Source of the DNA: Hyphomicrobiales bacterium
Lineage (GTDB): Bacteria > Pseudomonadota > Alphaproteobacteria > Rhizobiales > Xanthobacteraceae
Direction: 5' to 3'
NCBI GenBank assembly: GCA_003152455.1
Contig: PMAF01000314.1
Coordinates: 1-58,049, forward strand
DNA length: 58,049 bases
Shown here one piece after another: positions 37,322 through 48,273 of the stretch (the first letter of the stretch is position 1; each line of letters opens with the position of its first letter). Below the pieces are notes generated by a model. The model worked only from the letters and a program-made list of their open reading frames with translations. It was not told the origin of the DNA and made no database searches. A program made the position numbers and the translations under genes.

Positions 37322-38329
37322 TTACTTGAGCCGCTTGGCGGCGTCTTTCACCAGGCTCAGATCGGCGTATTTCGCGATGTCGAGCTTCTTCTTGACGAAG
37401 CCCAACTCGCGCGTCACCTCGACGTTACGCTGCAATGCCTCGAGGTTCGGAATGAGATTCGGATCCCTATAGGTATCGGCCTTGGTGAACAGCCAGCCGA
37501 ACCGCTCCGGCGGCGCCTTGGTGATCTTGGACGCTATCTTGGCGACTTCGTCGTGGTTCTTCGGGTCGAGGTACCAGTGCACGATGCGCAGCATGTCCTC
37601 CATGAAATCGACCATGGCGGCGCGGTGCTTGTCGATGAACGACTTGCGCGCGGTCAGCATGATCATCTGGGTGACGCCCAGAATGTCGCGCTGCTCGAAC
37701 AGGACCTTGCCGTCTTCCCGCAGCTTCGGATTGAACGAGAACGGCAGCACCACCGGAATGAGGTCCACTTTCTTTTCCAGCAGCATGGCCGGCATCGCCG
37801 GCAGCGGGCCTTCCAGCATGGTGTAGTCGCGCTTCTCCTCGAGGCCATGCTTGTGCAGCATGGCGCGGATGGCGACGTCGATGGCGCTGCCGCCGCCATT
37901 GGTGCCGATTACCTTGCCCTTGAGGTCCTCGACCTTGTTGATGCCCGAGTCCTTGCGCACGTAATATTGCCCGCTGTAGTAGCCGGGCACGCCGTCCTGG
38001 AATTCATCGGCAATGACGCGGATGTCGTCGAGCCCAGCGTTTTCGATGGCGATGGCGAGCGAGGAATAAGCGAGGCTGGCGACTTCGAGCTCGTTGTTGG
38101 CGATGGCCGCGATCGTCTGCGGCGTGCCCTGGTAGTGGATCGACTCGAGCGTGTAGGACTTGCCCATATGCTGGGCGAGATCCTTCTTCTCCAAAATGAT
38201 CGAACCCCAGTTGGCGATCGGGGCCACCCACGACATGCGGATCTTCACCGGCTCCGCGCTACGGGCGCTGCCGGTGGCGAAAAGGCCGAGCGCGCACACG
38301 CCGGCCAGCGCGAGTTTCATGAAGCGCAT
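37322..38329 (-). CDS. NitT/TauT (SsuA-like) ABC substrate-binding protein
   Basis: Signal peptide, DLKGKVIGTNGGGSAID; GGGAGG RBS. Confidence 0.88.
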   Translation of the reverse strand: MRFMKLALAGVCALGLFATGSARSAEPVKIRMSWVAPIANWGSIILEKKDLAQHMGKSYTLESIHYQGTPQTIAAIANNELEVASLAYSSLAIAIENAGLDDIRVIADEFQDGVPGYYSGQYYVRKDSGINKVEDLKGKVIGTNGGGSAIDVAIRAMLHKHGLEEKRDYTMLEGPLPAMPAMLLEKKVDLIPVVLPFSFNPKLREDGKVLFEQRDILGVTQMIMLTARKSFIDKHRAAMVDFMEDMLRIVHWYLDPKNHDEVAKIASKITKAPPERFGWLFTKADTYRDPNLIPNLEALQRNVEVTRELGFVKKKLDIAKYADLSLVKDAAKRLK

Positions 38330-38462
38330 CATTTCCTCCCAGTTTCGCCGTGCTTGCGCTTGAGCTTTGGCAAGCTTCACGCCGCGAATGCAAAGATTGT
38401 CGGGCGTCCAATCGATTTTGGCAAGCCTCACGGCCGCGGCGTTTTACCCGCCATGCGGTACA

Positions 38463-38534
38463 GCGCATGGCCCCGAAAAGTTTGTCCTCGACTCGATCGG
38501 GGATGGGTACCGGTTTTCGGAAAAGGCCATGCGC
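38463..38534. repeat. Palindromic REP/RIME-like element, long variant with internal hairpin insert
   Basis: gcgcatggccccgaaaagt[ttgtcctcgactcgatcggggat]gggtaccggttttcggaaaaggccatgcgc. Confidence 0.8.
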
Positions 38535-38547
38535 AAAAGAAAGAAGT

Positions 38548-39384
38548 CTATGCTGTCGTCGGCTCGTTGCTTTCCTGGTGCCAGATCAACAGCCGCCGAC
38601 GGATCAAAGCCATAACCTTGACCAGGCAATAGCCGACCACGGCGATCTCGACGATGCCGGCGAATACGCCGGTGGAATTGGCGAAACGCGATGCCGTCAT
38701 CATGGCGCCGCCGAGGCCATAGCCGCCCATCAGCATCTCGGCCACCACCGCTACGATCAGCGACAGCGGCAGCGCCACCTGCAGTCCGGTCATGATCTGC
38801 GGGCTCGCCGCAGGCAGCACGATCTGCGTCAGCAGTTCGCGGTTGTTCGCCCCCATGTTGCGCGCCGACCAGATCAACTCACGCTCGACGCCCTGAATGG
38901 CGATGACGGTGGCGGCGATCACCGGAAAAATGGCGTCGATGACGATGATGGTTATCTTCGAGACGTCGTAGACGCCGAGCCACAGGATCACCACCGGCAG
39001 GAAGGCTATCTTCGGCATCGGAAAGCCGACCGAGATGATCGGATCGAAAAACCAATTGGCGATCGCGCTGCGCGACATCGCCATGCCGATGATGACGCCG
39101 AACACCGCGCAGATCGCAAAGGCCGTCAGCGCGCGGTACAGCGTCAGCGCCGTGTTGATCCACAGGTCGCCAGACCAGGCGTCGCTGCCGATGCGCTCGA
39201 CCACCTCGCTGAATGCCGGCAGCTGAAAATGCGTGAAGGTGCCGCTGCGCGCCAGGATTTCCCAGGCCGCGAGCAGCAGCACGATCGAAAACACGCGCGT
39301 GAACGCCCCGAACAGCCAATAGACCAAGCGGGCGGCTTTCTCCGGCAAGCCGCCTGGCGCGTCGGCCGGCATGATTTGCGTCAC
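38548..39384 (-). CDS. NitT/TauT ABC permease
   Basis: PMPKIAFLPVVILWLG, ELIWSARNMGA, VVAEMLMG; GTGA overlap. Confidence 0.9.
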   Translation of the reverse strand: MTQIMPADAPGGLPEKAARLVYWLFGAFTRVFSIVLLLAAWEILARSGTFTHFQLPAFSEVVERIGSDAWSGDLWINTALTLYRALTAFAICAVFGVIIGMAMSRSAIANWFFDPIISVGFPMPKIAFLPVVILWLGVYDVSKITIIVIDAIFPVIAATVIAIQGVERELIWSARNMGANNRELLTQIVLPAASPQIMTGLQVALPLSLIVAVVAEMLMGGYGLGGAMMTASRFANSTGVFAGIVEIAVVGYCLVKVMALIRRRLLIWHQESNEPTTA

Positions 39385-40121
39385 TCGCGCCATGCCAGCG
39401 TCCGTTTGGTGATAACGAGATAAATCCGGTCGGCGGCAAAGCCGAGGAACGCCACCGTCAGCACCACCGCGTACATCGCGTCATACGAGCCGTTGGCGCC
39501 GAGCGAGCCGATCAGATAGCCGAAGCCCTTCTGCGCCACGATCAGTTCGGACGACACCAGCAGGATGAAGGAGAGCGCCAGCGCGGTGCGAACGCCGTTG
39601 AGCATTTCCGGCATCGCGCTCGGCACCACCACGTCCCACAGCATGCGCAGCCTATTGGCGCCCATGCTGCGCGCCGACCAGACCAGCGCTTGTTCACTGG
39701 ATCGTGCGCCGTTGAAGGCACCGATGGTGACCGGCAGCATGCAGCCGAGGAAAATCAGCAGGATCTTGGAGCCGTCGCCGTAGCCGAGCCAGATCACGGT
39801 GACCGGGATCAGCGCCGATTTCGGCAGTGGGTAGAACATCTCGACCAGAGGGCTGAGCAGCACGTTCGCCGGCTTCCACCACGCCATGACGATGCCGAGC
39901 GTGGCGCCGACCAAAATCGCGAGCCCCAAGCCGGCGAAGGCGCGGTAGAGCGAGGATAACCCGTTGCTGACGAGATCGCCGTCTTTCAGCAGGTCGATCC
40001 AGGCCCGGATCACGTCGGACAGTGGCGGCAGCGCGGTGGTCGATACCAGCTCGAAACGCGCCGCCAGCTCCCAGGCTATGGCCAGCAGCAGCAGCGGGAG
40101 ATACCGCACGACCTGCTTCAC
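39381..40121 (-). CDS. NitT/TauT ABC permease
   Basis: YPLPKSALIP, WSARSMGA, LVSSELI..KGFGYL. Confidence 0.9.
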   Translation of the reverse strand: MKQVVRYLPLLLLAIAWELAARFELVSTTALPPLSDVIRAWIDLLKDGDLVSNGLSSLYRAFAGLGLAILVGATLGIVMAWWKPANVLLSPLVEMFYPLPKSALIPVTVIWLGYGDGSKILLIFLGCMLPVTIGAFNGARSSEQALVWSARSMGANRLRMLWDVVVPSAMPEMLNGVRTALALSFILLVSSELIVAQKGFGYLIGSLGANGSYDAMYAVVLTVAFLGFAADRIYLVITKRTLAWRE

Positions 40122-40912
40122 GGCGCCCGTACTCCCTGCGCCTTGAGCGCTTCGTCCTTCACCAGATCCCAGAGCTCGTCCACCTTCTCGACGAAGGCCT
40201 TGGCCTTGTGGACGTGGGGATCGGTCTTGTCGAACTTGGTATCGACGATGGTCTTGATGCGGCCCGGCCGCGCCGACATCACCGCCACCCGGTCGGCGAG
40301 ATAGACCGCTTCCTGCACGTCGTGGGTGACGAAGATCACGGTCTTCGGCGTGCGCTGCCAGATGCGCAACAGCTCGCTCTGCATCAGGCCGCGGGTCTGC
40401 GCGTCGAGCGCGCCGAACGGCTCGTCCATCAGCAGGATTTTCGGATCGAAGGCGAGCGTGCGCGCGATGGCGCAGCGCTGCCGCATGCCGCCGGAGAGTT
40501 GCGAGGGGAAGCTGTCCTCGAAGCCGGAAAGGCCGACCAGTTCGATGAAATCGAGCGCGCGCTTTTCGCGTTCCTCCCTCGGCATGCCCTGCCGTTCCAG
40601 GCCGTAGAGGATGTTGCCGCGCACGGTTTTCCACGGAAACAGCGCGAAATGCTGGAACACGATGCCGCGGTCGGGGCCGGGGCCGGCGACCGGATTGCCG
40701 TCGACCCGGATTGCGCCGGTCTCGGCCGGGAGAAAGCCGCCAATCAAATAGAGCAGCGTCGACTTGCCGCAGCCGGACGGCCCCAGCAAGGCGATGAATT
40801 CGCGATTTTGTACCTCGAGCGAAACCCGCTCGAGCGCCAGCACCGCGCGGCCGCGCGGCGGGCGATAGAGGTGGCTGACGCCGTCGACGACGATTTGCGC
40901 AGGTGCGGCCAT
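40118..40912 (-). CDS. NitT/TauT ABC ATP-binding protein
   Basis: GPSGCGKST, LSGGMRQR, LLMDEPFGALD, FVTHD. Confidence 0.95.
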   Translation of the reverse strand: MAAPAQIVVDGVSHLYRPPRGRAVLALERVSLEVQNREFIALLGPSGCGKSTLLYLIGGFLPAETGAIRVDGNPVAGPGPDRGIVFQHFALFPWKTVRGNILYGLERQGMPREEREKRALDFIELVGLSGFEDSFPSQLSGGMRQRCAIARTLAFDPKILLMDEPFGALDAQTRGLMQSELLRIWQRTPKTVIFVTHDVQEAVYLADRVAVMSARPGRIKTIVDTKFDKTDPHVHKAKAFVEKVDELWDLVKDEALKAQGVRAP

Positions 40913-40980
40913 GACGGCAGAAGCGTCCCTAACCGCCGCCATATGTCAAGCGCCTGCGGCTATGTTTCAATGGCGGCGAT

Positions 40981-40997
40981 GTCCTATAATGTAGGAC
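40981..40997. promoter_or_regulatory. Palindromic operator candidate overlapping a TATAAT box
   Basis: GTCCTA-TAATG-TAGGAC in the divergent gap between the ABC ATPase and the aldolase. Confidence 0.6.
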
Positions 40998-41029
40998 ACC
41001 CAACCATCCCCACACGAGAGGAAGCCACA

Positions 41030-41824
41030 GTGGCCAATACGCTTAAAGACGCGTGCGCCGAACTCGCGCTTGCCAACCGCATGGTCGCCAACGAAGGCAT
41101 CATCGACGCCTTCGGGCATGTCAGCATGCGCCATCCCGACAATCCGGGCCGCTACCTGCTGTCGCGCTCGCGAGCGCCCGAACTGGTGACGCCGGACGAC
41201 TTCATCGAATACGACCTCGAATCGCAGCCGGCGCGCGACCCCGGCGTCGGCCAATATTCCGAACGGGTGATCCACGGCGAGATCTACAAGGCGCGGGCGG
41301 ACGTCATGTCGGTGTGCCATCACCATTGCGCGGCTTTCATGCCGCTGCTCGCCACCGGCACCGATTATGTTCCGATCTTTCATCTTGGCGCGGTCGGCGG
41401 CATCAAACCGCCATACTGGGACCAGCACGACGAGTTCGGCGACACCAATATGCTGGTGATCAAGCCGGAGGAGGGCGCCTCGCTCGCGCGCGCCCTCGGC
41501 AGCCAGTGGATGGTGCTGATGAAGCGCCACGGCGTCACCGTCGCGGGCACCAGCGTGAAGGATTGCGTATTCCGCTCGATTTATTCGGCTCGCAACGCCG
41601 AATACCAGGTGCGTGCCCTGACCGTCGGCGGCAGCGTCGCCTCGCTGACGCCTGGCGAAGCCGAATTGGCCGGCCAGATCAGCCGCAAGACCACGGGCCT
41701 CATGCGCTCGTGGGAATACTGGTCGATACGGGTGGCCAAAGCGGGCGGGGTGCCGCGGGCGTCCAAGAAGCCGGCAAAGGCGGCGGCAAAGCCGCGCCGG
41801 CTGCGTAAAATGCGGCGGCGCTGA
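41030..41824 (+). CDS. Class II aldolase/adducin family protein
   Basis: GHVSMR, SERVIHGEIY, VCHHH, LMKRHG metal-binding motifs; GAGAGGA RBS and GTG start. Confidence 0.88.
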   Translation: MANTLKDACAELALANRMVANEGIIDAFGHVSMRHPDNPGRYLLSRSRAPELVTPDDFIEYDLESQPARDPGVGQYSERVIHGEIYKARADVMSVCHHHCAAFMPLLATGTDYVPIFHLGAVGGIKPPYWDQHDEFGDTNMLVIKPEEGASLARALGSQWMVLMKRHGVTVAGTSVKDCVFRSIYSARNAEYQVRALTVGGSVASLTPGEAELAGQISRKTTGLMRSWEYWSIRVAKAGGVPRASKKPAKAAAKPRRLRKMRRR

Positions 41825-41915
41825 ATTTTGGGCTTTCCCCGTGGGCGGCACTCGGCTTGAATGCCCTCCACCTACGACTTCCAACGATAGAAAATAATTA
41901 CAGGGAGGATATCGA

Positions 41916-42884
41916 ATGAAGACCTTCAAGACCGTCGCCGCCGCGCTCGGGCTGGTCGTGCCGCTGGCGCTTGCGGGTACGCCGGCATCCGCCGAGGACA
42001 CGCTCAAGCTCGTGATCGGCCAGATCAACAATTGGGAAAACCAGGCCCCGACTCTCGGCCAGGACGCCGGCATCTTCAAGAAACACGGACTGGTGCTGGA
42101 GAACGTCGGCTCGCAAGGCGCCGGTGAGACTCTCCAGGCGGTGATCTCGGGGAGCGCCGATATCGGCGCGGGCGTCGGCGCGGCCGGCGCCATGCGCGCC
42201 TTCTCGAAAGGCGCGCCGGTGCGCATCCTTGCGCCGATGTTCACCGGCACGGGCGATCTGTACTGGTACGTGAAATCAGATTCCAAGATCAAAAGCCTGA
42301 AGGACGCTACGCCCGAGACCACCATCGCCTATTCGACCAACGGCTCGAGCTCGAACAACATCGTCGTTGCCTTCATCAGCGAGCTCGGCGCCAAGGCCAA
42401 GCCGACCGCCACCGGCGGCCCTCCGGGTACGCTGACCGCGGTCATGTCCGGCCAAGTCGATATCGGCTGGGCGGCGCCGCCGTTCGGCCTGCAGGAAATC
42501 AAGGACGGCAAGATCCGCATCGTCGCGCACGGCAGCGACGTGCCGTCGCTGCGCGGGCAGACGGTGCGCGTGCTGGTCGTGAATGCGAACGCGCTGAAGA
42601 CCAAGCATGACGCGATCCTGCGTTTCATGGCGGCCTATCGCGAAGCGGTGGACTGGATGTATTCCGATCCGAAGGCGGTCGAGATGTATTCGGTCAAAAT
42701 CAAACGGCCGATCGACCTGCTCAAGGAGTCGATGGCCAAATTCCAGCCCAAGGAGGCCCTGCAGACCGATAAATTTGCCGACCTCGACGGCGCCATCCGC
42801 GACGCGGTCAAGCTGAAATTCCTCGAGAAACCGCTGACCAAGGAGCAGATCGCGGAATTGATGCAGATTCCGCCGCGCAAGTGA
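41916..42884 (+). CDS. NMT1/SsuA-like ABC substrate-binding protein
   Basis: Signal peptide, QGAGETLQAVISGSAD, AVMSGQVDIGW. Confidence 0.88.
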   Translation: MKTFKTVAAALGLVVPLALAGTPASAEDTLKLVIGQINNWENQAPTLGQDAGIFKKHGLVLENVGSQGAGETLQAVISGSADIGAGVGAAGAMRAFSKGAPVRILAPMFTGTGDLYWYVKSDSKIKSLKDATPETTIAYSTNGSSSNNIVVAFISELGAKAKPTATGGPPGTLTAVMSGQVDIGWAAPPFGLQEIKDGKIRIVAHGSDVPSLRGQTVRVLVVNANALKTKHDAILRFMAAYREAVDWMYSDPKAVEMYSVKIKRPIDLLKESMAKFQPKEALQTDKFADLDGAIRDAVKLKFLEKPLTKEQIAELMQIPPRK

Positions 42885-42918
42885 TAAGCGCGCCGCGTCA
42901 GGCTTTTCAAAAAATTAA

Positions 42919-42945
42919 ACGGGCCGCTGTCTGGCAGCGGCCCGT
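42919..42945. terminator. Probably bidirectional intrinsic terminator
   Basis: ACGGGCCGCTG-TCTGG-CAGCGGCCCGT with an A-tract on the left and TCTTGT on the right. Confidence 0.75.
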
Positions 42946-42977
42946 CTTGTATCGCCGTCCAATCGTTGCGGCGACGA

Positions 42978-43298
42978 CTACTTCTTCATTGCCTTTTTCT
43001 TCGACGCCTTGGCCTTCTTCTTGTGCTTCTTGTGCTTCGCGGCCTTCTGGGCCGGGCAGGCCTTTCCCGACACCACCTTGGCGCCGTCCTTAACCGCGAT
43101 GCAGGCGCTGGCATAAGTGAACTTCATGCCGCCCTTCGCCGCACAGACCGGCTTCTCCGCCGTGAGGCAGGGGCCGGGGTAGGTCACAGGCGCCGCCGCC
43201 TTCTTCGCTTTCGCCTCGCTCGGTCCACCCGAGCCGATCACGAAAGCGGCGGCCGCGGCGGCAATAAAAGCTGCATATCCGATATTTTTGAGTTTCAT
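42978..43298 (-). CDS. Secreted Kazal-like small protein with Lys/His-rich tail
   Basis: Signal peptide; C-LTAEK-PVC-AAKGGMKFTYASAC...GKAC; GGAGG RBS. Confidence 0.75.
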   Translation of the reverse strand: MKLKNIGYAAFIAAAAAAFVIGSGGPSEAKAKKAAAPVTYPGPCLTAEKPVCAAKGGMKFTYASACIAVKDGAKVVSGKACPAQKAAKHKKHKKKAKASKKKAMKK

Positions 43299-43415
43299 CT
43301 TTGTCCTCCCGCCATTTTTGACGCCTCATTGTAGGAAGGAACTCGGCGAGATTACAAGAAATTTACGCCGCTGCGCTGCACCCAAACCTGAATGCGCGTT
43401 CATGTCGCCGGTCGC

Positions 43416-44318
43416 TCAGGGTCGCGCCTTCGCGCCGCTGATGGCATCGAGCAGGGCGGCCCCGCCGGAGGTGAGCGAGGCGCGCACCTTTTCGTCTTTG
43501 CCGATCGCGCCCATCTCGCGCTGGCGCTTGACGGTGGAGTCCACCATCAGCGGGTCGAGCCCGAGTTCGCGTAAGGTCGCGGCCGACTCTTCCATCTCGG
43601 CGGCGCGGCGTTCGCCGTGGCTAGCCATGCGCTCCAGGTTGTACTCGGCGATCTTGGTCCAATCGAGCGACGGATAATTGTTCTTCATCGACGCGGTGAC
43701 TTCCTCCAGCACGCCGGCGCGGCTGGCGGCGAGAAAGCATTCCAACGTCAGCGCCTCGATGCCCTTGATCATCACGCTGCGGATCATCTTGATGGCGGCG
43801 GCGTGCCCGGTATCGCCGCCCACGACGCTCAGTTTCATCTCCAACTCATGGAGCAGTGGCGAAATCGCTTCGGCATGGGGACCGGCGATCAACAGCGGCG
43901 TCTTGTGGCGCGCCGGATGGATCGGCGCGATTACCGCCACGTCCACATAGCGGGCGCGCTCGCCCAGCAGCTTCGCGGTCTCCCGCTTGCGGCCGGGCGA
44001 GACCGAATTGATGTCGAGATAGTACGGCGCGCCGGTGAGATACGGCTCGACCGAGCGGGCGGCTTCGAGGCTCGATGCCGCCGTCACCGCGGAAATGATC
44101 ATATCGGTCTCGGCGACGGCGTCGGCCGCCGAACGCGCGAGCCGCACCCCCATGCTTTCGCCGGCCGCCTTCAGCCGCGCGCCCTCCGCCGCCGGAAACA
44201 GGATGTCCCAGGCGGCGATGCGCTCGATGCCGCCTTCGCGCAGCCCTGAGGCGATCGCCTGTCCGGCCTCGCCGAAACCGATGAAGGAAACGCGCGGGGT
44301 GTTGCGGCGGGTCATCAT
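43416..44318 (-). CDS. NAD(P)-dependent beta-hydroxyacid dehydrogenase-like protein with DUF1932
   Basis: FIGFGEAG, YLDINSVSP, KMIRSVMIKG, HGERRAAEMEE. Confidence 0.85.
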   Translation of the reverse strand: MMTRRNTPRVSFIGFGEAGQAIASGLREGGIERIAAWDILFPAAEGARLKAAGESMGVRLARSAADAVAETDMIISAVTAASSLEAARSVEPYLTGAPYYLDINSVSPGRKRETAKLLGERARYVDVAVIAPIHPARHKTPLLIAGPHAEAISPLLHELEMKLSVVGGDTGHAAAIKMIRSVMIKGIEALTLECFLAASRAGVLEEVTASMKNNYPSLDWTKIAEYNLERMASHGERRAAEMEESAATLRELGLDPLMVDSTVKRQREMGAIGKDEKVRASLTSGGAALLDAISGAKARP

Positions 44319-44327
44319 GTTGCCATC

Positions 44328-45095
44328 CTAAATCGTTTTCACTTCCGCATCTTGCCGCGTCGTCTGGAAACTGACCGCCATCAGCCAGTTTCCGCCGCGC
44401 TTGACGAAGACGCGGCTGACGCGCGCCGCGTTGCCGTGGAACGGCTGGTGCTCGCAAGCCATCACAATGGCGTCGTTAAAGCCGAACAGCCGCGCCGATA
44501 CCAGCGGCGCCGGGGCGGAATTGGCGCCGCTGCGCAACTGCTCTGCCAGCACCGCCTTGCGGTCGGCCTTCGAGTGCCGCCGCGCCGCGCCCACCACCAG
44601 GAATTCGTCGGCGACGTGCTGCGCCCAGATTTCGGGCTCATGATGCATCACCGCGATCTCCAGCCGCTGCCAGGAGGCGAGTGCGTCGCGCTCGTCGGCG
44701 TTGCGCGGCTGATAGGGCAGCGTGTAGCAGGGATTATCCCATTCCTTGCGGCCGGGACCATGGGGCATTGTCGGAAAATTCTGCGAGACCTCGTGGTAGG
44801 CGATGAGGCGCCAACCCTGCGCGCGTTTGACCCAGAGGCGCAGCACAAAAACCTTGTCGCGGTCGACGACGATGGTGACCACCTCGCCGTAATCCTGGGT
44901 CGCCTGCGCGAGGCCGGGCTCGTCATCGAGCGGCGGCTTGGGCAGCGCGCCGACGGCTTTCGCTTTGTCGAGAATGCGCCCGTTGCAATCCACCCAGGTG
45001 AAATCGTCGTCGAACAAGGCCGCGGCGGCGCCGGCGTCGCCGTTCGCCAGCGCAGCCACCAGAGCGCGGTCGCTATGCAATACGGCTTCGTTCAT
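44328..45095 (-). CDS. Tandem DUF4440 / NTF2-like protein
   Basis: Two SnoaL-like units: LFDDDFTWVD...WRLIAYHE and VADEFLVV...WLMAVSFQT. Confidence 0.75.
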   Translation of the reverse strand: MNEAVLHSDRALVAALANGDAGAAAALFDDDFTWVDCNGRILDKAKAVGALPKPPLDDEPGLAQATQDYGEVVTIVVDRDKVFVLRLWVKRAQGWRLIAYHEVSQNFPTMPHGPGRKEWDNPCYTLPYQPRNADERDALASWQRLEIAVMHHEPEIWAQHVADEFLVVGAARRHSKADRKAVLAEQLRSGANSAPAPLVSARLFGFNDAIVMACEHQPFHGNAARVSRVFVKRGGNWLMAVSFQTTRQDAEVKTI

Positions 45096-45103
45096 GGCCG
45101 CGG

Positions 45104-46072
45104 TTACGACTCCGGCACGCCCGGCACCGGCGGCGTGCCGTGGGTGTGGAATGACTTGATGGTCTGCAGACCCCAAGCCTGGCCCTTCTTGCGCTCAGCC
45201 TCGCTCCAGCGGATCGGTTTCCAGTCCGGCGCCAGGACCAGGCGCGCGCCGGGGCAGGCGACTTCCACGCGGTTGCCGCCCGGCTCGTAGACATAGAGGA
45301 AGAACGTCTGCTGGATAGCGTGTTTGTGCGGCCCGGTCTCGATGAACACGCCGTGTTCCAGAAATACGTCGGCGGCGCGCAGCACGTCCTCGCGCGAGTC
45401 GAGCGCGTAAGTGACATGATGGAAGCGGCCTTTGGTGCCGGAGTGGTCGCGCGTGTAAGCGAAGTCGTAGGTCTTGTTGGTCGCGGTCAGCCACATGCCG
45501 GCTTCGGTGCCGTCGTCGAGCACGATCTGCTCGGTCAGCATGAAGCCGAGATAATTCTCGAAGAATTCGCGGTTCGCCTTGATATCCGCGGCCAGCCCGT
45601 TGAAGTGATCGATGCGCCGCACGTTGCAGCCGCGCGCCGGATAGCGCTGCGCCTGGTTTTTCAGCGCGGGCTTCTGGTCGGGCGGCGGATCGTACCATTC
45701 GGTGTCGTAATAAAGTTCGATCACGTGGCCGTCCGGATCCTTGCACACGAAAGTCTTGCCGTGGCCGAAGTCGCCATCGGTCCAGCCGACGTCGAAGCCG
45801 GAGCCTTTCAGCGCCGCCGCGCGCCGCTCCAGCGCCTGTGGGCTACGGGTTCGGAAGGCGGCATGGCCCATGCCGGAGGTTTTCGAGTCGGTGAGCTTGA
45901 GCGAATAACGCTCGTAGTCGTCCCAGCCGCGCAGATAGACGCTCGATCCCCTCTCGCCGCTCTGGGTCATGCCCATGACGTCGATGAAGAACTTGCGGCT
46001 TTCCTCGAATTTCGGCGTCAGGACTTCGACATGGCCGAGATGGGCGATGTCGCGAATGGGTTCCGGCTGCAT
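45104..46072 (-). CDS. VOC-family extradiol dioxygenase (catechol 2,3-dioxygenase-like)
   Basis: AHLGHVEV, RRIDHFN, RFHHVTY, GPHKHAI..FFLYVYEPGGNRVE. Confidence 0.92.
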   Translation of the reverse strand: MQPEPIRDIAHLGHVEVLTPKFEESRKFFIDVMGMTQSGERGSSVYLRGWDDYERYSLKLTDSKTSGMGHAAFRTRSPQALERRAAALKGSGFDVGWTDGDFGHGKTFVCKDPDGHVIELYYDTEWYDPPPDQKPALKNQAQRYPARGCNVRRIDHFNGLAADIKANREFFENYLGFMLTEQIVLDDGTEAGMWLTATNKTYDFAYTRDHSGTKGRFHHVTYALDSREDVLRAADVFLEHGVFIETGPHKHAIQQTFFLYVYEPGGNRVEVACPGARLVLAPDWKPIRWSEAERKKGQAWGLQTIKSFHTHGTPPVPGVPES

Positions 46073-46103
46073 AAGAGGGTTCTAGTGCGCTGTCGCCATT
46101 TGA

Positions 46104-46787
46104 TCAATTCCTGCGCCCGGCGCCGGCGAAGGCCAGCACCAGGTTGTTCGCCGGCATGGGAACGATCTCGGCCGGCGTGAGGCCGGCCGCTTGCGCGAGC
46201 GCGTTCAGATCATCCAGGTCGCGCACGCCCCATTCGGGATTTTCCGCCCGCAGGCTGGCGTCGAATTCGGCGTTGCTCGGCGCGGTGTGCTGCCCGGAGC
46301 GCTTAAACGGTCCATAGGCGAACAGCCGGCCATCGGCGGCCAGATACCGGCCGGCGCCGGCGATGAGGTTTTGCGCCACGCGCCAAGGCGATATGTGCAG
46401 CACGTTGATACAGAGCATGGCGGCGAGGACGCCGCCGGGCTGCTTATCCGCGGTCCACGACCAGGCGGGATCGGTCAGGTCGATGTGCTGCGGCGTACGC
46501 AGGTTGGCGAGCCCGGCATGCCGCCGCCAGGCTTCGATGCTGGCGAGATGGGATGGGTAAATATCGCTCGGCCACCAGGTGAGCTGCGGCGAACGGCCCG
46601 CAAACGTCGTCGCGTGCTGCCCGGTGCCGCTGCCAAGCTCCAGCACGTCGCCGGTCTGCGCGCTCAAAAAAGTGGCCATCGTCGACCAGATGGCATCGTG
46701 ATTGCGCTCGAACGCGGGGCCCTGCAGCCGGCCGTCGGGCGCGGCTTCTTTCCCGGACTTTCCGAATTCGACGACGAATTTAGCCAC
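46104..46787 (-). CDS. DUF938 family class I SAM-dependent methyltransferase
   Basis: PAFERNHDAI, VLELGSGTGQH, INVLHISPW, YGPFKRSGQHTAPSNAEFD, MPANN. Confidence 0.88.
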   Translation of the reverse strand: MAKFVVEFGKSGKEAAPDGRLQGPAFERNHDAIWSTMATFLSAQTGDVLELGSGTGQHATTFAGRSPQLTWWPSDIYPSHLASIEAWRRHAGLANLRTPQHIDLTDPAWSWTADKQPGGVLAAMLCINVLHISPWRVAQNLIAGAGRYLAADGRLFAYGPFKRSGQHTAPSNAEFDASLRAENPEWGVRDLDDLNALAQAAGLTPAEIVPMPANNLVLAFAGAGRRN

Positions 46788-46861
46788 GGCTGCAACGGCC
46801 TCTTTGCCCGCGCAATGGGCGTTTCGTTTTGTTGGCGTTATGAAATTGTTGCCGGCGCCGC

Positions 46862-47554
46862 CTAAACATCTTCCGGGTTGTCGACATAGATGAGCCCGGC
46901 CTTGGCCAGGCCTTCGCGCATCTTGTACATGTCGAGGCTGAGTTCGCCCGTGGCCAGGCGCTCGCGCTTGCCGTCCTCGTCGTCGTGGCGTTTCTGCGCC
47001 TTGGCGGCCGTGTCGACTGCCAATTTCTTGGGCACCACCACCACGCCGTCGTCGTCGCAGACCACCACGTCGCCCGGCTCGACATTGACGCCCGCGCACA
47101 CCACCGGAATGTTGACCGCGCCGAGCGCGGCCTTGACCGTGCCTTTGGCCGAGATCGCCCGCGACCACACCGGAAAGCCCATCTCGGTGAGCGCCTTGAT
47201 GTCGCGGCAGCCGGCGTCGAGGACGAGGCCGATGACGCCGCGCGCCACCAGCGCGGTCGCCAGCAATTCGCCGAACATGCCGTCGGTATTGTCGGCGCTG
47301 CAGCCGACCACCAGCACGTCGCCCTTCTGGCACTGCTCGACCGCCACATGGAGCATCCAGTTGTCGCCCGGCTGCGCCAGCACGGTCACCGCCGGCCCGC
47401 CGATGGCGGCGCCGGCCCAGATCGGGCGCATGTAGGGCTTCATCAGCCCGGAGCGCCCGAGCGCCTCGTGCGCGGTGGAGACGCCGGCGGCGGCGAGCGT
47501 GCCGATGGCGTTGGGATCGGCGCGTTTGATGTTGCGGACGACGACGGGTTTCAT
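46862..47554 (-). CDS. ligK: 4-carboxy-4-hydroxy-2-oxoadipate aldolase / oxaloacetate decarboxylase (GalC/LigK)
   Basis: STAHEALGR, PGDNWMLH, GMFGELLAT, DAGCRD, KGTVK, DDDGVV. Confidence 0.92.
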   Translation of the reverse strand: MKPVVVRNIKRADPNAIGTLAAAGVSTAHEALGRSGLMKPYMRPIWAGAAIGGPAVTVLAQPGDNWMLHVAVEQCQKGDVLVVGCSADNTDGMFGELLATALVARGVIGLVLDAGCRDIKALTEMGFPVWSRAISAKGTVKAALGAVNIPVVCAGVNVEPGDVVVCDDDGVVVVPKKLAVDTAAKAQKRHDDEDGKRERLATGELSLDMYKMREGLAKAGLIYVDNPEDV

Positions 47555-48273
47555 TTCAGGATCTCCTCGACGGTCGGGAACAGCCGCTGGTAGGCCTCGC
47601 CATAGGTCATCGGCACGCCGGTGTTTCGCGAGCCCTGGATGCCGCGGTTGAGTGCGACGCGCTCGTAATAAGCCCACAGGTGTTTTTGTGCGGCCAGAAT
47701 CTGGAACGTCTTGTATTTTTGCTCCCACACCTCGTCGATCTTGAGAATGAGGTTGGGCTTGTAGTTGCACATCTCGGGCTGGTGCGGCTCGAACAGGAAC
47801 ACCGGCGGCGCGGCGTATTTGTATTTGGCGCCCGGCTTGTGGCCCATGGCCTGCGCCACCACGCGCGTCTCCTGCGCGAAATGCGCGGCGTTCGGATGAT
47901 CGAAATTGTATGGGTCCTCGAGCGCGTGCGTGAGCACGAAGGACGGATTGAGCTCGCGGTAGATATCGACCATGCGGTCGAAATGCCGCTCGTTGAGCTT
48001 GAGCGGATAGTCGCCGCAGTCGAAAAACTCGATCTCGGCGCCGAGCAGGCTGGCGGCGCGCTCGGCCTCGTCCTTGCGGCCGGCTTTCACCGTTTCGAGC
48101 GTGGCGCCCGGCTCCTTCCAGGCGAACTGGCTCTCGCCGCGCTCGCCGAAGGACATGCAGACGATTTTCACCTTGTAGCCGCGCTTGGCGTGCAGCGCGA
48201 TGGCGCCGCCCGCGCGCCAAACGAAATCGCCCGGGTGGGCGGTGATGACGAGCCCGGTCTTCTGTTCCGGCAT
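47551..48273 (-). CDS. galB: 4-oxalomesaconate hydratase, PIG-L family
   Basis: TAHPGDFVWRAGGAIALHA, SFGERGES, DPYNFDHP, FEPHQPE. Confidence 0.88.
   Translation of the reverse strand: MPEQKTGLVITAHPGDFVWRAGGAIALHAKRGYKVKIVCMSFGERGESQFAWKEPGATLETVKAGRKDEAERAASLLGAEIEFFDCGDYPLKLNERHFDRMVDIYRELNPSFVLTHALEDPYNFDHPNAAHFAQETRVVAQAMGHKPGAKYKYAAPPVFLFEPHQPEMCNYKPNLILKIDEVWEQKYKTFQILAAQKHLWAYYERVALNRGIQGSRNTGVPMTYGEAYQRLFPTVEEILK

Follow-up and report, generated by a model that had tools for sequence, protein, structure and literature searches.

Gallate, syringate-derived and protocatechuate-type acids are major decay products of tannin and lignin, and genome and metagenome surveys score the turnover of such acids by counting ligAB, galA and desB genes. 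The closest described systems are the gallate pathway of Pseudomonas putida KT2440 and the protocatechuate 4,5-pathway of Sphingobium sp. SYK-6, in which 4-oxalomesaconate is hydrated to CHA (4-carboxy-4-hydroxy-2-oxoadipate) and CHA is cleaved to pyruvate and oxaloacetate. Here we describe a locus at positions 37322-48273 of a 58,049-nucleotide stretch of DNA from a peat-soil Hyphomicrobiales bacterium of the family Xanthobacteraceae (assembly GCA_003152455.1, contig PMAF01000314.1, our contig C87; hereafter "the window"). At this locus the hydratase gene galB and the aldolase gene ligK share a run with a gene for an extradiol dioxygenase with a vicinal oxygen chelate (VOC) fold, i.e., a type I enzyme.

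In AromaDeg, the LigB superfamily is the only heading under which gallate, methylgallate and protocatechuate 4,5-dioxygenases are listed, and type I enzymes are given no such substrate (PMC4250580, 2014). In papers from 2024-2025, the gallate dioxygenases named are still only those of the GalA/DesB/LigAB type. In open-access full text, which our literature searches covered throughout, we found no published description of a VOC or type I enzyme linked to oxalomesaconate, GalB or LigK, in agreement with the preliminary description of this locus, which had suggested an undescribed route.

We conclude that the run probably codes for a non-orthologous version of the 4,5-type meta-cleavage pathway for gallate/protocatechuate, a reading made by sequence comparison. 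Three observations carry it: the identities of GalB and LigK, an active-site change specific to the dioxygenase clade, and the conserved linkage of that clade to galB and ligK.

GalB and LigK

Genes were mapped by open reading frame calling guided by GC content at third codon positions (GC3), by Pfam and NCBIfam scans and from public gene calls on identical contigs, and all of these agree. The galB gene (47551-48273, minus strand) encodes a PIG-L-family protein of 240 aa (PF02585, E 1e-22), identified as 4-oxalomesaconate (4-carboxy-2-hydroxymuconate) hydratase. It aligns with PDB entry 5cgz, the GalB of P. putida KT2440, over 233 residues (residues 5-238) with one small gap (E 9e-87, 54% identity), and the alignment places an N-terminal AH(P/S)xDF motif in both proteins. 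The next PDB matches are sugar deacetylases, found only at E > 1e-5.

The ligK gene (46862-47554, minus strand) encodes an RraA-like aldolase of the CHA/HMG type (HMG, 4-hydroxy-4-methyl-2-oxoglutarate), scoring 341.7 bits against TIGR02798 (cut-off 304.5) and 360.9 bits against NF006731 (cut-off 179). It matches PDB entry 3noj, the P. putida F1 aldolase, at E 4e-79 and 58% identity. In the F1 enzyme, Arg-123 is essential, Asp-124 and Glu-199 are metal ligands, and Arg-40, Asn-71, His-75, Gly-144, Thr-145, Lys-147 and Arg-195 belong to the phosphate/pyruvate site (PMC5065237). When aligned with 3noj, the window protein keeps all of R40, N71, H75, R123, D124, G144, T145, K147, R195 and E199. 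The assembly has one copy each of galB and ligK. As judged from these matches, the window GalB and LigK are true orthologues of 4-oxalomesaconate hydratase and CHA aldolase.

A dioxygenase clade with an altered active site

The dioxygenase gene (45104-46072, minus strand) encodes a two-domain VOC protein of 322 aa, which matches PF00903 in two stretches, has no LigB domain (PF02900) and is recognised by TIGR03211. Its nearest solved relative is PDB entry 9wgj (E 5e-122), which we traced to Geobacillus thermocatenulatus. This entry is labelled "catechol 1,2-dioxygenase", and our search found no paper on the enzyme; with its structure solved, a study of it may be in progress. It falls in the same clade as the window dioxygenase, which we call the Tyr clade after the residue described below. 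A Bradyrhizobium orthologue shares 80% identity with the window enzyme.

We aligned the window dioxygenase with XylE (1mpy), homoprotocatechuate 2,3-dioxygenase (HPCD, 1f1x), the RHA1 catechol 2,3-dioxygenase (3lm4) and 164 homologues drawn from loci that were fetched solely by dioxygenase similarity. All 164 clade members retain the 2-His-1-carboxylate Fe ligands (H156, H219 and E270), and H251 and Y260 (the equivalents of His248 and Tyr257) are conserved as in HPCD, along with the equivalents of Asn157 and Trp192. The second-sphere catalytic His, which is His200 in HPCD and His199 in XylE, is replaced by Tyr202 in the window protein and by Tyr in 164/164 clade members. His occupies this position in XylE, HPCD, 3lm4, the organism's own paralogue on contig C248 (see below) and the nearest His-bearing representatives. 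A second feature of the clade is an invariant K/R at position 296, within the motif ERK(K/R)GQAWG; the equivalent residue is Thr in the His-bearing 3lm4 and C248 proteins.

In a maximum-likelihood tree, the labelled Tyr-bearing sequences form one clade (support 96/91) with two halves, one from Bacillota, Chloroflexota and Spirochaetota and the other from Proteobacteria and Acidobacteriota. One further Tyr-bearing representative (P0150, motif KAYD), which was not among the labelled sequences, sits just outside the clade in an unresolved fork. In its active-site residues, the window dioxygenase departs from ordinary catechol 2,3-dioxygenases, failing one of their defining features, the catalytic His. 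It may work like the LigB-superfamily enzymes without being a member of that superfamily.

Ring-cleavage genes in the rest of the genome

The assembly is 4.75 Mb in 314 contigs and is 96% complete. The preliminary description had reported a galB-ligK-DUF938-VOC-DUF4440-DUF1932 run near a class II aldolase and an ATP-binding cassette (ABC) system of the NitT/TauT type that has two binding proteins, and we recovered every one of these genes in that order and at those positions. It had also remarked that LigB-fold GalA/LigAB, LigC, LigI and GalD/LigU are missing from the locus, and the window indeed holds no galA, ligAB, ligC, ligI or galD/ligU gene. Its central idea, that a VOC-type dioxygenase rather than GalA/LigAB feeds galB and ligK, gains support from the lack of a GalA/LigAB-type gene genome-wide, the linkage across phyla and the active-site sequence of the clade. 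For the wider genome the outcome was mixed: a PF02900 search of the draft assembly found no GalA/LigAB/DesB-type gene, but LigI-like and PrpF-like genes do exist on other contigs. The only PF02900 match is a YgiD-type 4,5-DOPA dioxygenase at a contig edge (NF007914, 274 bits, cut-off 233).

The assembly has 31 Amidohydro_2 genes, just one of which is LigI-like (C110:5187-6047). It lies beside a TctC receptor gene, and its product shares 56% identity with a Bradyrhizobium cluster protein, which itself matches LigI (4d8l) at E 2e-64; its best NCBIfam match is to 4-sulfomuconolactone hydrolase, below the cut-off. The one PrpF-family gene, on the 2.8-kb contig C233, scores 228.8 bits against the oxalomesaconate tautomerase model NF033377, which is below the cut-off of 440 and above its own score against the PrpF model. 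The genome encodes no DUF6282 protein, a family that occurs in related clusters described below.

Two gene blocks outside the window may feed or complete the pathway. One (C110:2874-6047) comprises an FAD monooxygenase, the TctC receptor and the LigI-like lactonase. In the other (C255:34327-37217), a TctC receptor and an Amidohydro_2 protein are joined by a 4,5-dihydroxyphthalate-decarboxylase homologue with 54% identity to a Bradyrhizobium cluster protein.

The genome also encodes a second VOC dioxygenase (C248:5611-6594), which is 49% identical to the window enzyme and keeps the catalytic His. Its gene is 0.9 kb from an HpaH equivalog (2-oxo-hept-4-ene-1,7-dioate hydratase, 361.6 bits, cut-off 351.5), and 3-oxoacid CoA-transferase genes are nearby. 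This paralogue is of the conventional meta-pathway kind and offers a helpful internal control for the window enzyme.

Linkage of the dioxygenase clade to galB and ligK

In Alphaproteobacteria, Acidobacteriota, Bacillota and Chloroflexota alike, the Tyr-clade dioxygenase gene is found next to galB-ligK. Counting only loci with full 10-kb flanks, both galB and ligK were within 10 kb of it in 21/23 loci from Bacillota/Chloroflexota, 18/21 from close relatives of the window, 14/20 from other proteobacteria and 12/41 of the Bradyrhizobium type. In all five of the "orphan" Bradyrhizobium genomes that were checked, a TetR-LigI-GalB-LigK-PhtD-like-DUF1932 operon lies approximately 25 kb from the dioxygenase gene (PhtD-like denotes a 4,5-dihydroxyphthalate-decarboxylase homologue).

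To quantify co-occurrence, we used 151 evenly drawn genomes of the host family: the VOC dioxygenase and GalB occurred together in 28, the dioxygenase without GalB in 15, GalB without the dioxygenase in 9 and neither of them in 99. This gives an odds ratio of 20.5 (Fisher p 2.5e-12, with no correction for phylogeny). The two genes share a contig and lie within 25 kb of each other in 18-19 of the 28 double carriers.

Cluster variants and the DUF1932 dehydrogenase

Clusters from other lineages show four recurring arrangements. In type (a), found in Lysinibacillus, Neobacillus and Solibacillus, a major facilitator superfamily (MFS) carrier gene accompanies a VOC-GalB-LigK-RidA-TRAP(DctPQM)-GntR operon, TRAP being a tripartite ATP-independent periplasmic transporter. 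Type (b), found in Geobacillus, Alicyclobacillus and Thermogemmatispora, comprises VOC, GntR and a DUF6282-GalB-LigK-DUF1932-MFS unit. Type (c), from Acetobacteraceae, has MFS-LysR next to VOC-GalB-LigK-PhtD-like-DUF1932, and type (d), from Bradyrhizobium, is TetR-LigI-TctC-GalB-LigK-PhtD-like-VOC-P450. Culturable carriers include Bradyrhizobium murdochi WSM1741 (LigI-TctC-GalB-LigK-PhtD-like-VOC-P450), Bradyrhizobium diazoefficiens and Lysinibacillus macroides DSM 54.

Type (a) operons contain no dehydrogenase and no lactonase, so their cleavage product must be a near-direct GalB substrate, as it is with gallate in known chemistry. A type (a) operon is self-contained: its three enzymes and the small RidA protein would convert a carboxylate brought in from outside into pyruvate and oxaloacetate. 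The set resembles GalA-GalD-GalB-GalC, and it is possible that RidA stands in for the tautomerase there. Among 30 Bacillota/Chloroflexota clusters, 15 had both DUF1932 and DUF6282, 11 had RidA only, 3 had DUF1932 with RidA, and 1 had DUF1932 alone. DUF6282 never occurred without DUF1932 and never with RidA.

The DUF1932 gene of the window (43416-44318, minus strand) encodes an NAD(P)-binding dehydrogenase of 300 aa with a fold like those of 6-phosphogluconate and 3-hydroxyisobutyrate dehydrogenases (PF09130 at E 9e-19, with PF03446 and PF03807). Its domains are NAD_binding_2 and DUF1932, not the Gfo/Idh/MocA fold. DUF1932 genes from different phyla are linked to galB-ligK, to the VOC gene or to both, and the window genome has a single copy. 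The family is not known to have a characterised member: our literature search returned nothing on it, and its PDB relatives, 4ezb (E 9e-50) and 3qsg (E 2e-45), are both uncharacterised structural-genomics entries, presumably from Sinorhizobium and Alicyclobacillus, respectively. Alicyclobacillus carries a VOC-DUF6282-GalB-LigK-DUF1932 cluster, so 3qsg may be the structure of a cluster enzyme if our presumption about its source holds.

DUF6282, which is found at L102:7613-8518 in Geobacillus and at 14 further Bacillota/Chloroflexota loci, carries an HxH motif in its N-terminal part. Its AlphaFold2 (AF2) model has a predicted local distance difference test (pLDDT) score of 87 and matches only triosephosphate isomerase (TIM) barrels of the amidohydrolase superfamily, including phosphotriesterase-like lactonases. 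A putative hydrolase of 2-pyrone-4,6-dicarboxylate appears at rank 50 of the fold search, which indicates only general membership of that superfamily, and profile-profile comparison with LigI was weak (probability 17%). We found no published function for DUF6282; its constant pairing with DUF1932 and its absence beside RidA suggest a lactonase-type step.

A dehydrogenase that travels with a lactonase-like gene repeats the LigC plus LigI pattern, and we therefore propose DUF1932 as a ring-cleavage semialdehyde dehydrogenase. By this analogy, DUF1932 would oxidise the semialdehyde formed from a dihydroxy substrate such as protocatechuate and the lactonase would open the resulting pyrone, while gallate would need neither enzyme.

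Counter-evidence and alternative readings

Several observations weigh against the proposed pathway. GalB is absent from 15/43 of the family genomes that carry the VOC dioxygenase. We checked 12 VOC-positive genomes without a GalB match: 7 also lacked LigK, 4 had LigK alone, and the twelfth had only distant RraA-family matches (34-35% identity). The four with LigK presumably use another hydratase. Approximately 1 in 6 VOC-carrying genomes has neither galB nor ligK. In one of these (locus L088, genome G006), the VOC and DUF1932 genes stand beside an aldo-keto reductase and a thioesterase, and the persistence of VOC-DUF1932 without GalB and LigK implies that the pair can work without the CHA steps. 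Most close relatives of the window have approximately 4.5 kb, with another ABC system, between ligK and the dioxygenase block.

Other points concern the genome and the dioxygenase itself. The assembly is in 314 pieces, which limits claims of absence, and it holds pcaHG-like genes, so protocatechuate has another route. The window dioxygenase scores 345.6 bits against TIGR03211 (cut-off 320.2), and this NCBIfam model names it as a catechol 2,3-dioxygenase equivalog. One feature that favours the pathway also has a limit: the basic residue at 296 falls on the Arg292/Arg293 stretch of HPCD, where Arg293 belongs to the carboxylate pocket, and the alignment there may be one residue off.

Two alternatives draw on these points. 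According to the first, the enzyme is a 2,3-dioxygenase of the usual kind for catechol or alkylcatechols, as its NCBIfam name implies, and its proximity to galB-ligK is meaningless; GalB and LigK would then serve pyrone-dicarboxylate or oxalomesaconate imported via the TctC-LigI-like pair on C110, or would be fed by an unrecognised dioxygenase. The TIGR03211 score, the approximately 40% identity to the RHA1 enzyme 3lm4, the existence of the TctC and LigI-like pair elsewhere in the genome and the retention of VOC without GalB or LigK in some genomes are all in its favour. However, it leaves unexplained the linkage conserved across at least four phyla and the strong co-occurrence, and also the compact VOC-GalB-LigK operons with their own transporter and regulator. 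It also has to accommodate a catalytic His replaced clade-wide and a basic residue at 296 which 3lm4 and the C248 paralogue do not have. Furthermore, positions 37322-48273 contain none of the genes of a catechol meta-pathway (the XylF/G/H/I/J/K types), i.e., no semialdehyde hydrolase or dehydrogenase, 4-oxalocrotonate tautomerase (4-OT), 4-oxalocrotonate decarboxylase (4-OD), oxopentenoate hydratase or 4-hydroxy-2-oxo-acid (HOA) aldolase. We consider this alternative unlikely.

The second alternative separates the two blocks: VOC and DUF1932 would form an independent unit acting on another diol (e.g., one made by the adjacent decarboxylase) whose product is not a GalB substrate, and GalB-LigK would be mere neighbours in islands of plant-phenolic genes. 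This fits the VOC-DUF1932 adjacency in genome G006, the loss of LigK as well in 7 of the 12 genomes checked and the ABC insert that parts the blocks in most close relatives. The arrangement in other lineages argues the other way. In Bacillota, DUF1932 shares an operon with GalB-LigK and not with VOC; in Bradyrhizobium, it follows LigI-GalB-LigK-PhtD-like while VOC is 25 kb away; and VOC-GalB-LigK operons without DUF1932 exist. GalB-LigK is thus the commoner partner of both VOC and DUF1932, and we regard an independent VOC-DUF1932 unit as improbable. The 4,5-type meta-cleavage variant remains our preferred reading.

Transporter, decarboxylase and accessory genes

The block next to the dioxygenase run has the make-up of a NitT/TauT-type importer, i.e., NMT1-type binding proteins, BPD_transp_1 permeases and an ABC ATPase. 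On the minus strand are the genes for the ATPase (40118-40942, PF00005), two permeases (39381-40121 and 38548-39393, both PF00528) and binding protein 1 (37322-38431, PF13379/PF09084). Two plus-strand genes diverge from this ABC operon: one for a class II aldolase/adducin-fold protein (41030-41824, 264 aa, PF00596 at E 2e-20, with the start at 41030 as in the public gene call) and one for binding protein 2, an NMT1/THI5-like periplasmic protein (41916-42884, 322 aa, PF09084 at E 2e-13, PF13379, with TIGR01728 below the cut-off). The NMT1 binding proteins score below the SsuA/TauA cut-offs. The importer and the aldolase-fold gene adjoin the dioxygenase block in 17/21 close relatives. The additional ABC system of the close relatives (e.g., L004:5347-9288, and in most of L002-L019) comprises an NMT1 binding protein of the NitT/TauT type and a permease on the opposite strand, between ligK and DUF938; it is absent from the window and from locus L030.

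The preliminary description had called the aldolase-fold protein a class II aldolase, which is right for the fold but not for the nearest relative. By far its best solved match is 2z7b (Mlr6791 of Mesorhizobium loti, E 4e-46), which is far closer than any aldolase and which we take to be 3-hydroxy-2-methylpyridine-4,5-dicarboxylate 4-decarboxylase. The match to the 3,4-dihydroxyphthalate decarboxylase (PhtC) model NF053537 is weak (59 bits, cut-off 200), and the protein is below every NCBIfam cut-off. On these comparisons, the protein most likely decarboxylates an ortho-hydroxy (hetero)aromatic carboxylate. Other lineages have an unrelated 4,5-dihydroxyphthalate-decarboxylase homologue (PhtD-like; 9jp7, E 2e-25) at the equivalent place. 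Two unrelated decarboxylase families beside the same dioxygenase point to a dicarboxylated di- or trihydroxy ring being trimmed to the cleavage substrate.

The Mlr6791 match also raises a third alternative, that the cluster degrades a hydroxylated N-heterocyclic dicarboxylate (e.g., a hydroxypyridine-dicarboxylate) by NMT1/THI5 import, Mlr6791-like decarboxylation and VOC ring opening. Besides the 2z7b similarity and its presumed decarboxylase role, the NMT1/THI5 type of the binding proteins and the RidA-family (imine/enamine deaminase-like) genes of Bacillaceae operons would suit such a substrate. However, GalB and LigK are close orthologues of enzymes for nitrogen-free tricarboxylates, and the window cluster has no amidase or deaminase. 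The ABC/decarboxylase block is also confined to Xanthobacteraceae-type clusters, the other lineages using MFS, TRAP or TctC carriers. We judge this alternative very unlikely. A vitamin-B6-type pathway was also considered as the main interpretation and was dropped, as the cluster has no other such gene and GalB and LigK are close to orthologues that act on tricarboxylates.

The two remaining genes of the run, DUF938 and DUF4440, are present as first described but are not conserved parts of the pathway. DUF938 (46104-46787, minus strand) encodes a METTL26-like protein of 227 aa with an S-adenosylmethionine (SAM)-dependent methyltransferase fold (PF06080, E 5e-66, profile positions 5-200 of 202). 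It occurs in 16/21 close relatives, whereas the examined clusters of Bacillota, Bradyrhizobium type A and Acetobacteraceae all lack it. DUF4440 (44328-45095, minus strand) encodes an NTF2-like protein of 255 aa (PF14534, E 4e-12, N-terminal part), which occurs in only 3/21. Both are lineage-specific accessories. The AF2 model of the DUF4440 protein is weak (pLDDT 62), with a helix-then-sheet pattern in both halves; as an NTF2-like fold would suit the reaction, the protein is a candidate keto-enol tautomerase.

In Geobacillus, a catechol/caffeoyl-CoA-type O-methyltransferase gene (L102:11766-12461, PF01596) lies approximately 1 kb from the dioxygenase gene. There are thus two unrelated methyltransferase-fold genes near dioxygenases of this clade (PF01596 in Geobacillus and the upstream DUF938 in the window), which may be coincidence or may reflect shared catechol methylation.

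Gene order and expression

From galB to DUF1932, the intergenic distances are -4, 74, 31, 8 and 9 nt, with the galB/ligK overlap being ATGA, and AAGGAG precedes the galB ATG. No strong terminator-like hairpin was found inside this run. The tight spacing, the ATGA overlap and the lack of an internal terminator-like hairpin suggest that the minus-strand galB-ligK-DUF938-VOC-DUF4440-DUF1932 run is probably one operon. The sole strong terminator-like hairpin of the region (42917-42947, minus strand, 13 pairs and a T-run) is 3' of the next gene, which encodes a small secreted Lys-rich protein. A promoter scan gave nothing exceeding shuffled expectation.

This small protein (42978-43298, minus strand, 106 aa) contains Cys, has a signal-peptide-like N-terminus in translation and matches nothing in Pfam or NCBIfam. 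Its gene has a promoter-like site of its own at 43328-43357 and is kept at the same place in several relatives. No transcription-factor gene was found anywhere in 37322-48273. Equivalent clusters have regulators of the GntR/FCD (Bacillota), LysR (Acetobacteraceae) and TetR (Bradyrhizobium) types. To one side of the cluster lie urtABCDE/urease genes, and to the other DUF1993 and exbBD-tonB.

Proposed pathway

In the first step, the Tyr-for-His VOC enzyme, which keeps the Fe(II) 2-His-1-carboxylate site, would open the ring of a carboxylated catechol or pyrogallol. We infer the substrate from the pathway as a whole: a gallate-type acid is our leading candidate, though it falls short of an even chance, and protocatechuate and some other carboxylated diol are each somewhat less probable. 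If the substrate is gallate, cleavage would give 4-oxalomesaconate directly. If it is protocatechuate, the product would be 4-carboxy-2-hydroxymuconate semialdehyde, which the DUF1932 dehydrogenase would oxidise in a LigC-like role, and the LigI-like lactonase encoded on C110 would open any pyrone-dicarboxylate that forms.

From this point the two routes would coincide. GalB would hydrate the enol form to CHA, and LigK would cleave CHA to pyruvate and oxaloacetate. The DUF4440 protein could speed keto-enol tautomerisation, which is the job of GalD in P. putida. The ABC importer and the decarboxylase-like protein could supply the ring substrate from a dicarboxylated precursor. These roles of DUF1932, DUF4440, the decarboxylase and the transporter, and any role of DUF938, are suggested by context and fold.

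A broader proposal can be made more tentatively, and we give it a little less than an even chance. In it, the type I enzymes of the Tyr clade make up a new functional class that carries out gallate and/or protocatechuate 4,5-type cleavage, a reaction recorded until now for the unrelated LigB superfamily only, with Tyr as the second-sphere acid-base, DUF1932 is a new family of semialdehyde dehydrogenases, and DUF6282 is a new Gram-positive lactonase. Together these would complete a "shadow" Lig/Gal pathway that is mis-annotated as catechol 2,3-dioxygenase.

Implications

Soil Xanthobacteraceae and Bradyrhizobium are rich in members of the clade, with thousands of close homologues. If the broader proposal is true, the pathway would range across soil Xanthobacteraceae, Bradyrhizobium, Acidobacteriota, Bacillota and Chloroflexota. 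Surveys based on the known genes would then miss a large share of the capacity to turn over these acids, and annotation would be wrong in assigning the clade to catechol meta-cleavage. DUF1932, DUF6282 and perhaps DUF4440 would gain functions, and studies of the extradiol mechanism would gain a natural His-to-Tyr variant. Thermostable enzymes such as that of Geobacillus (9wgj) might then be used to make pyrone-dicarboxylate from lignin streams.

Comparison with known systems

Among type I extradiol dioxygenases (3lm4, XylE, HPCD and 9wgj), the window enzyme shares the two-domain VOC fold and the 2-His-1-carboxylate Fe site. It differs from XylE and HPCD in having Tyr in place of His199/His200 and in its neighbours, which are GalB-LigK rather than XylFGHIJK or HpaEFGHI, and from 3lm4 and the C248 paralogue in its basic residue at 296. 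The aldolase-fold protein shares the class II aldolase/adducin fold with Mlr6791 and PhtC, both of which remove a carboxyl group adjacent to a ring hydroxyl. The window cluster has no other gene of a vitamin-B6 or phthalate pathway.

The P. putida KT2440 gallate pathway (GalA, GalD, GalB, GalC) resembles the window in its GalB (54% identity) and in its aldolase (58% to the F1 enzyme), and both organisms have pcaHG or pcaHG-like genes for protocatechuate. In place of GalA, a LigB-superfamily enzyme with no counterpart in the window assembly, the window has a VOC-fold dioxygenase. The window cluster also has no GalD (a PrpF-type protein), leaving the DUF4440/NTF2-like protein as the only candidate tautomerase there, and it has extra genes for the DUF1932 dehydrogenase and DUF938.

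With the protocatechuate 4,5-pathway of Sphingobium sp. SYK-6 (LigAB, LigC, LigI, LigU, LigJ, LigK), the window shares the end steps and the aldolase family. The other parts differ in type: VOC stands for LigAB, the 6-phosphogluconate dehydrogenase-like DUF1932 protein for the Gfo/Idh/MocA-type LigC, and the PIG-L-family GalB for the amidohydrolase LigJ. The lactonase gene is outside the window cluster, and in Bacillota DUF6282 takes the place of LigI. Elsewhere, clusters of the same clade combine dioxygenase, dehydrogenase, lactonase-like protein, hydratase and aldolase, mirroring LigAB-LigC-LigI-LigJ-LigK.

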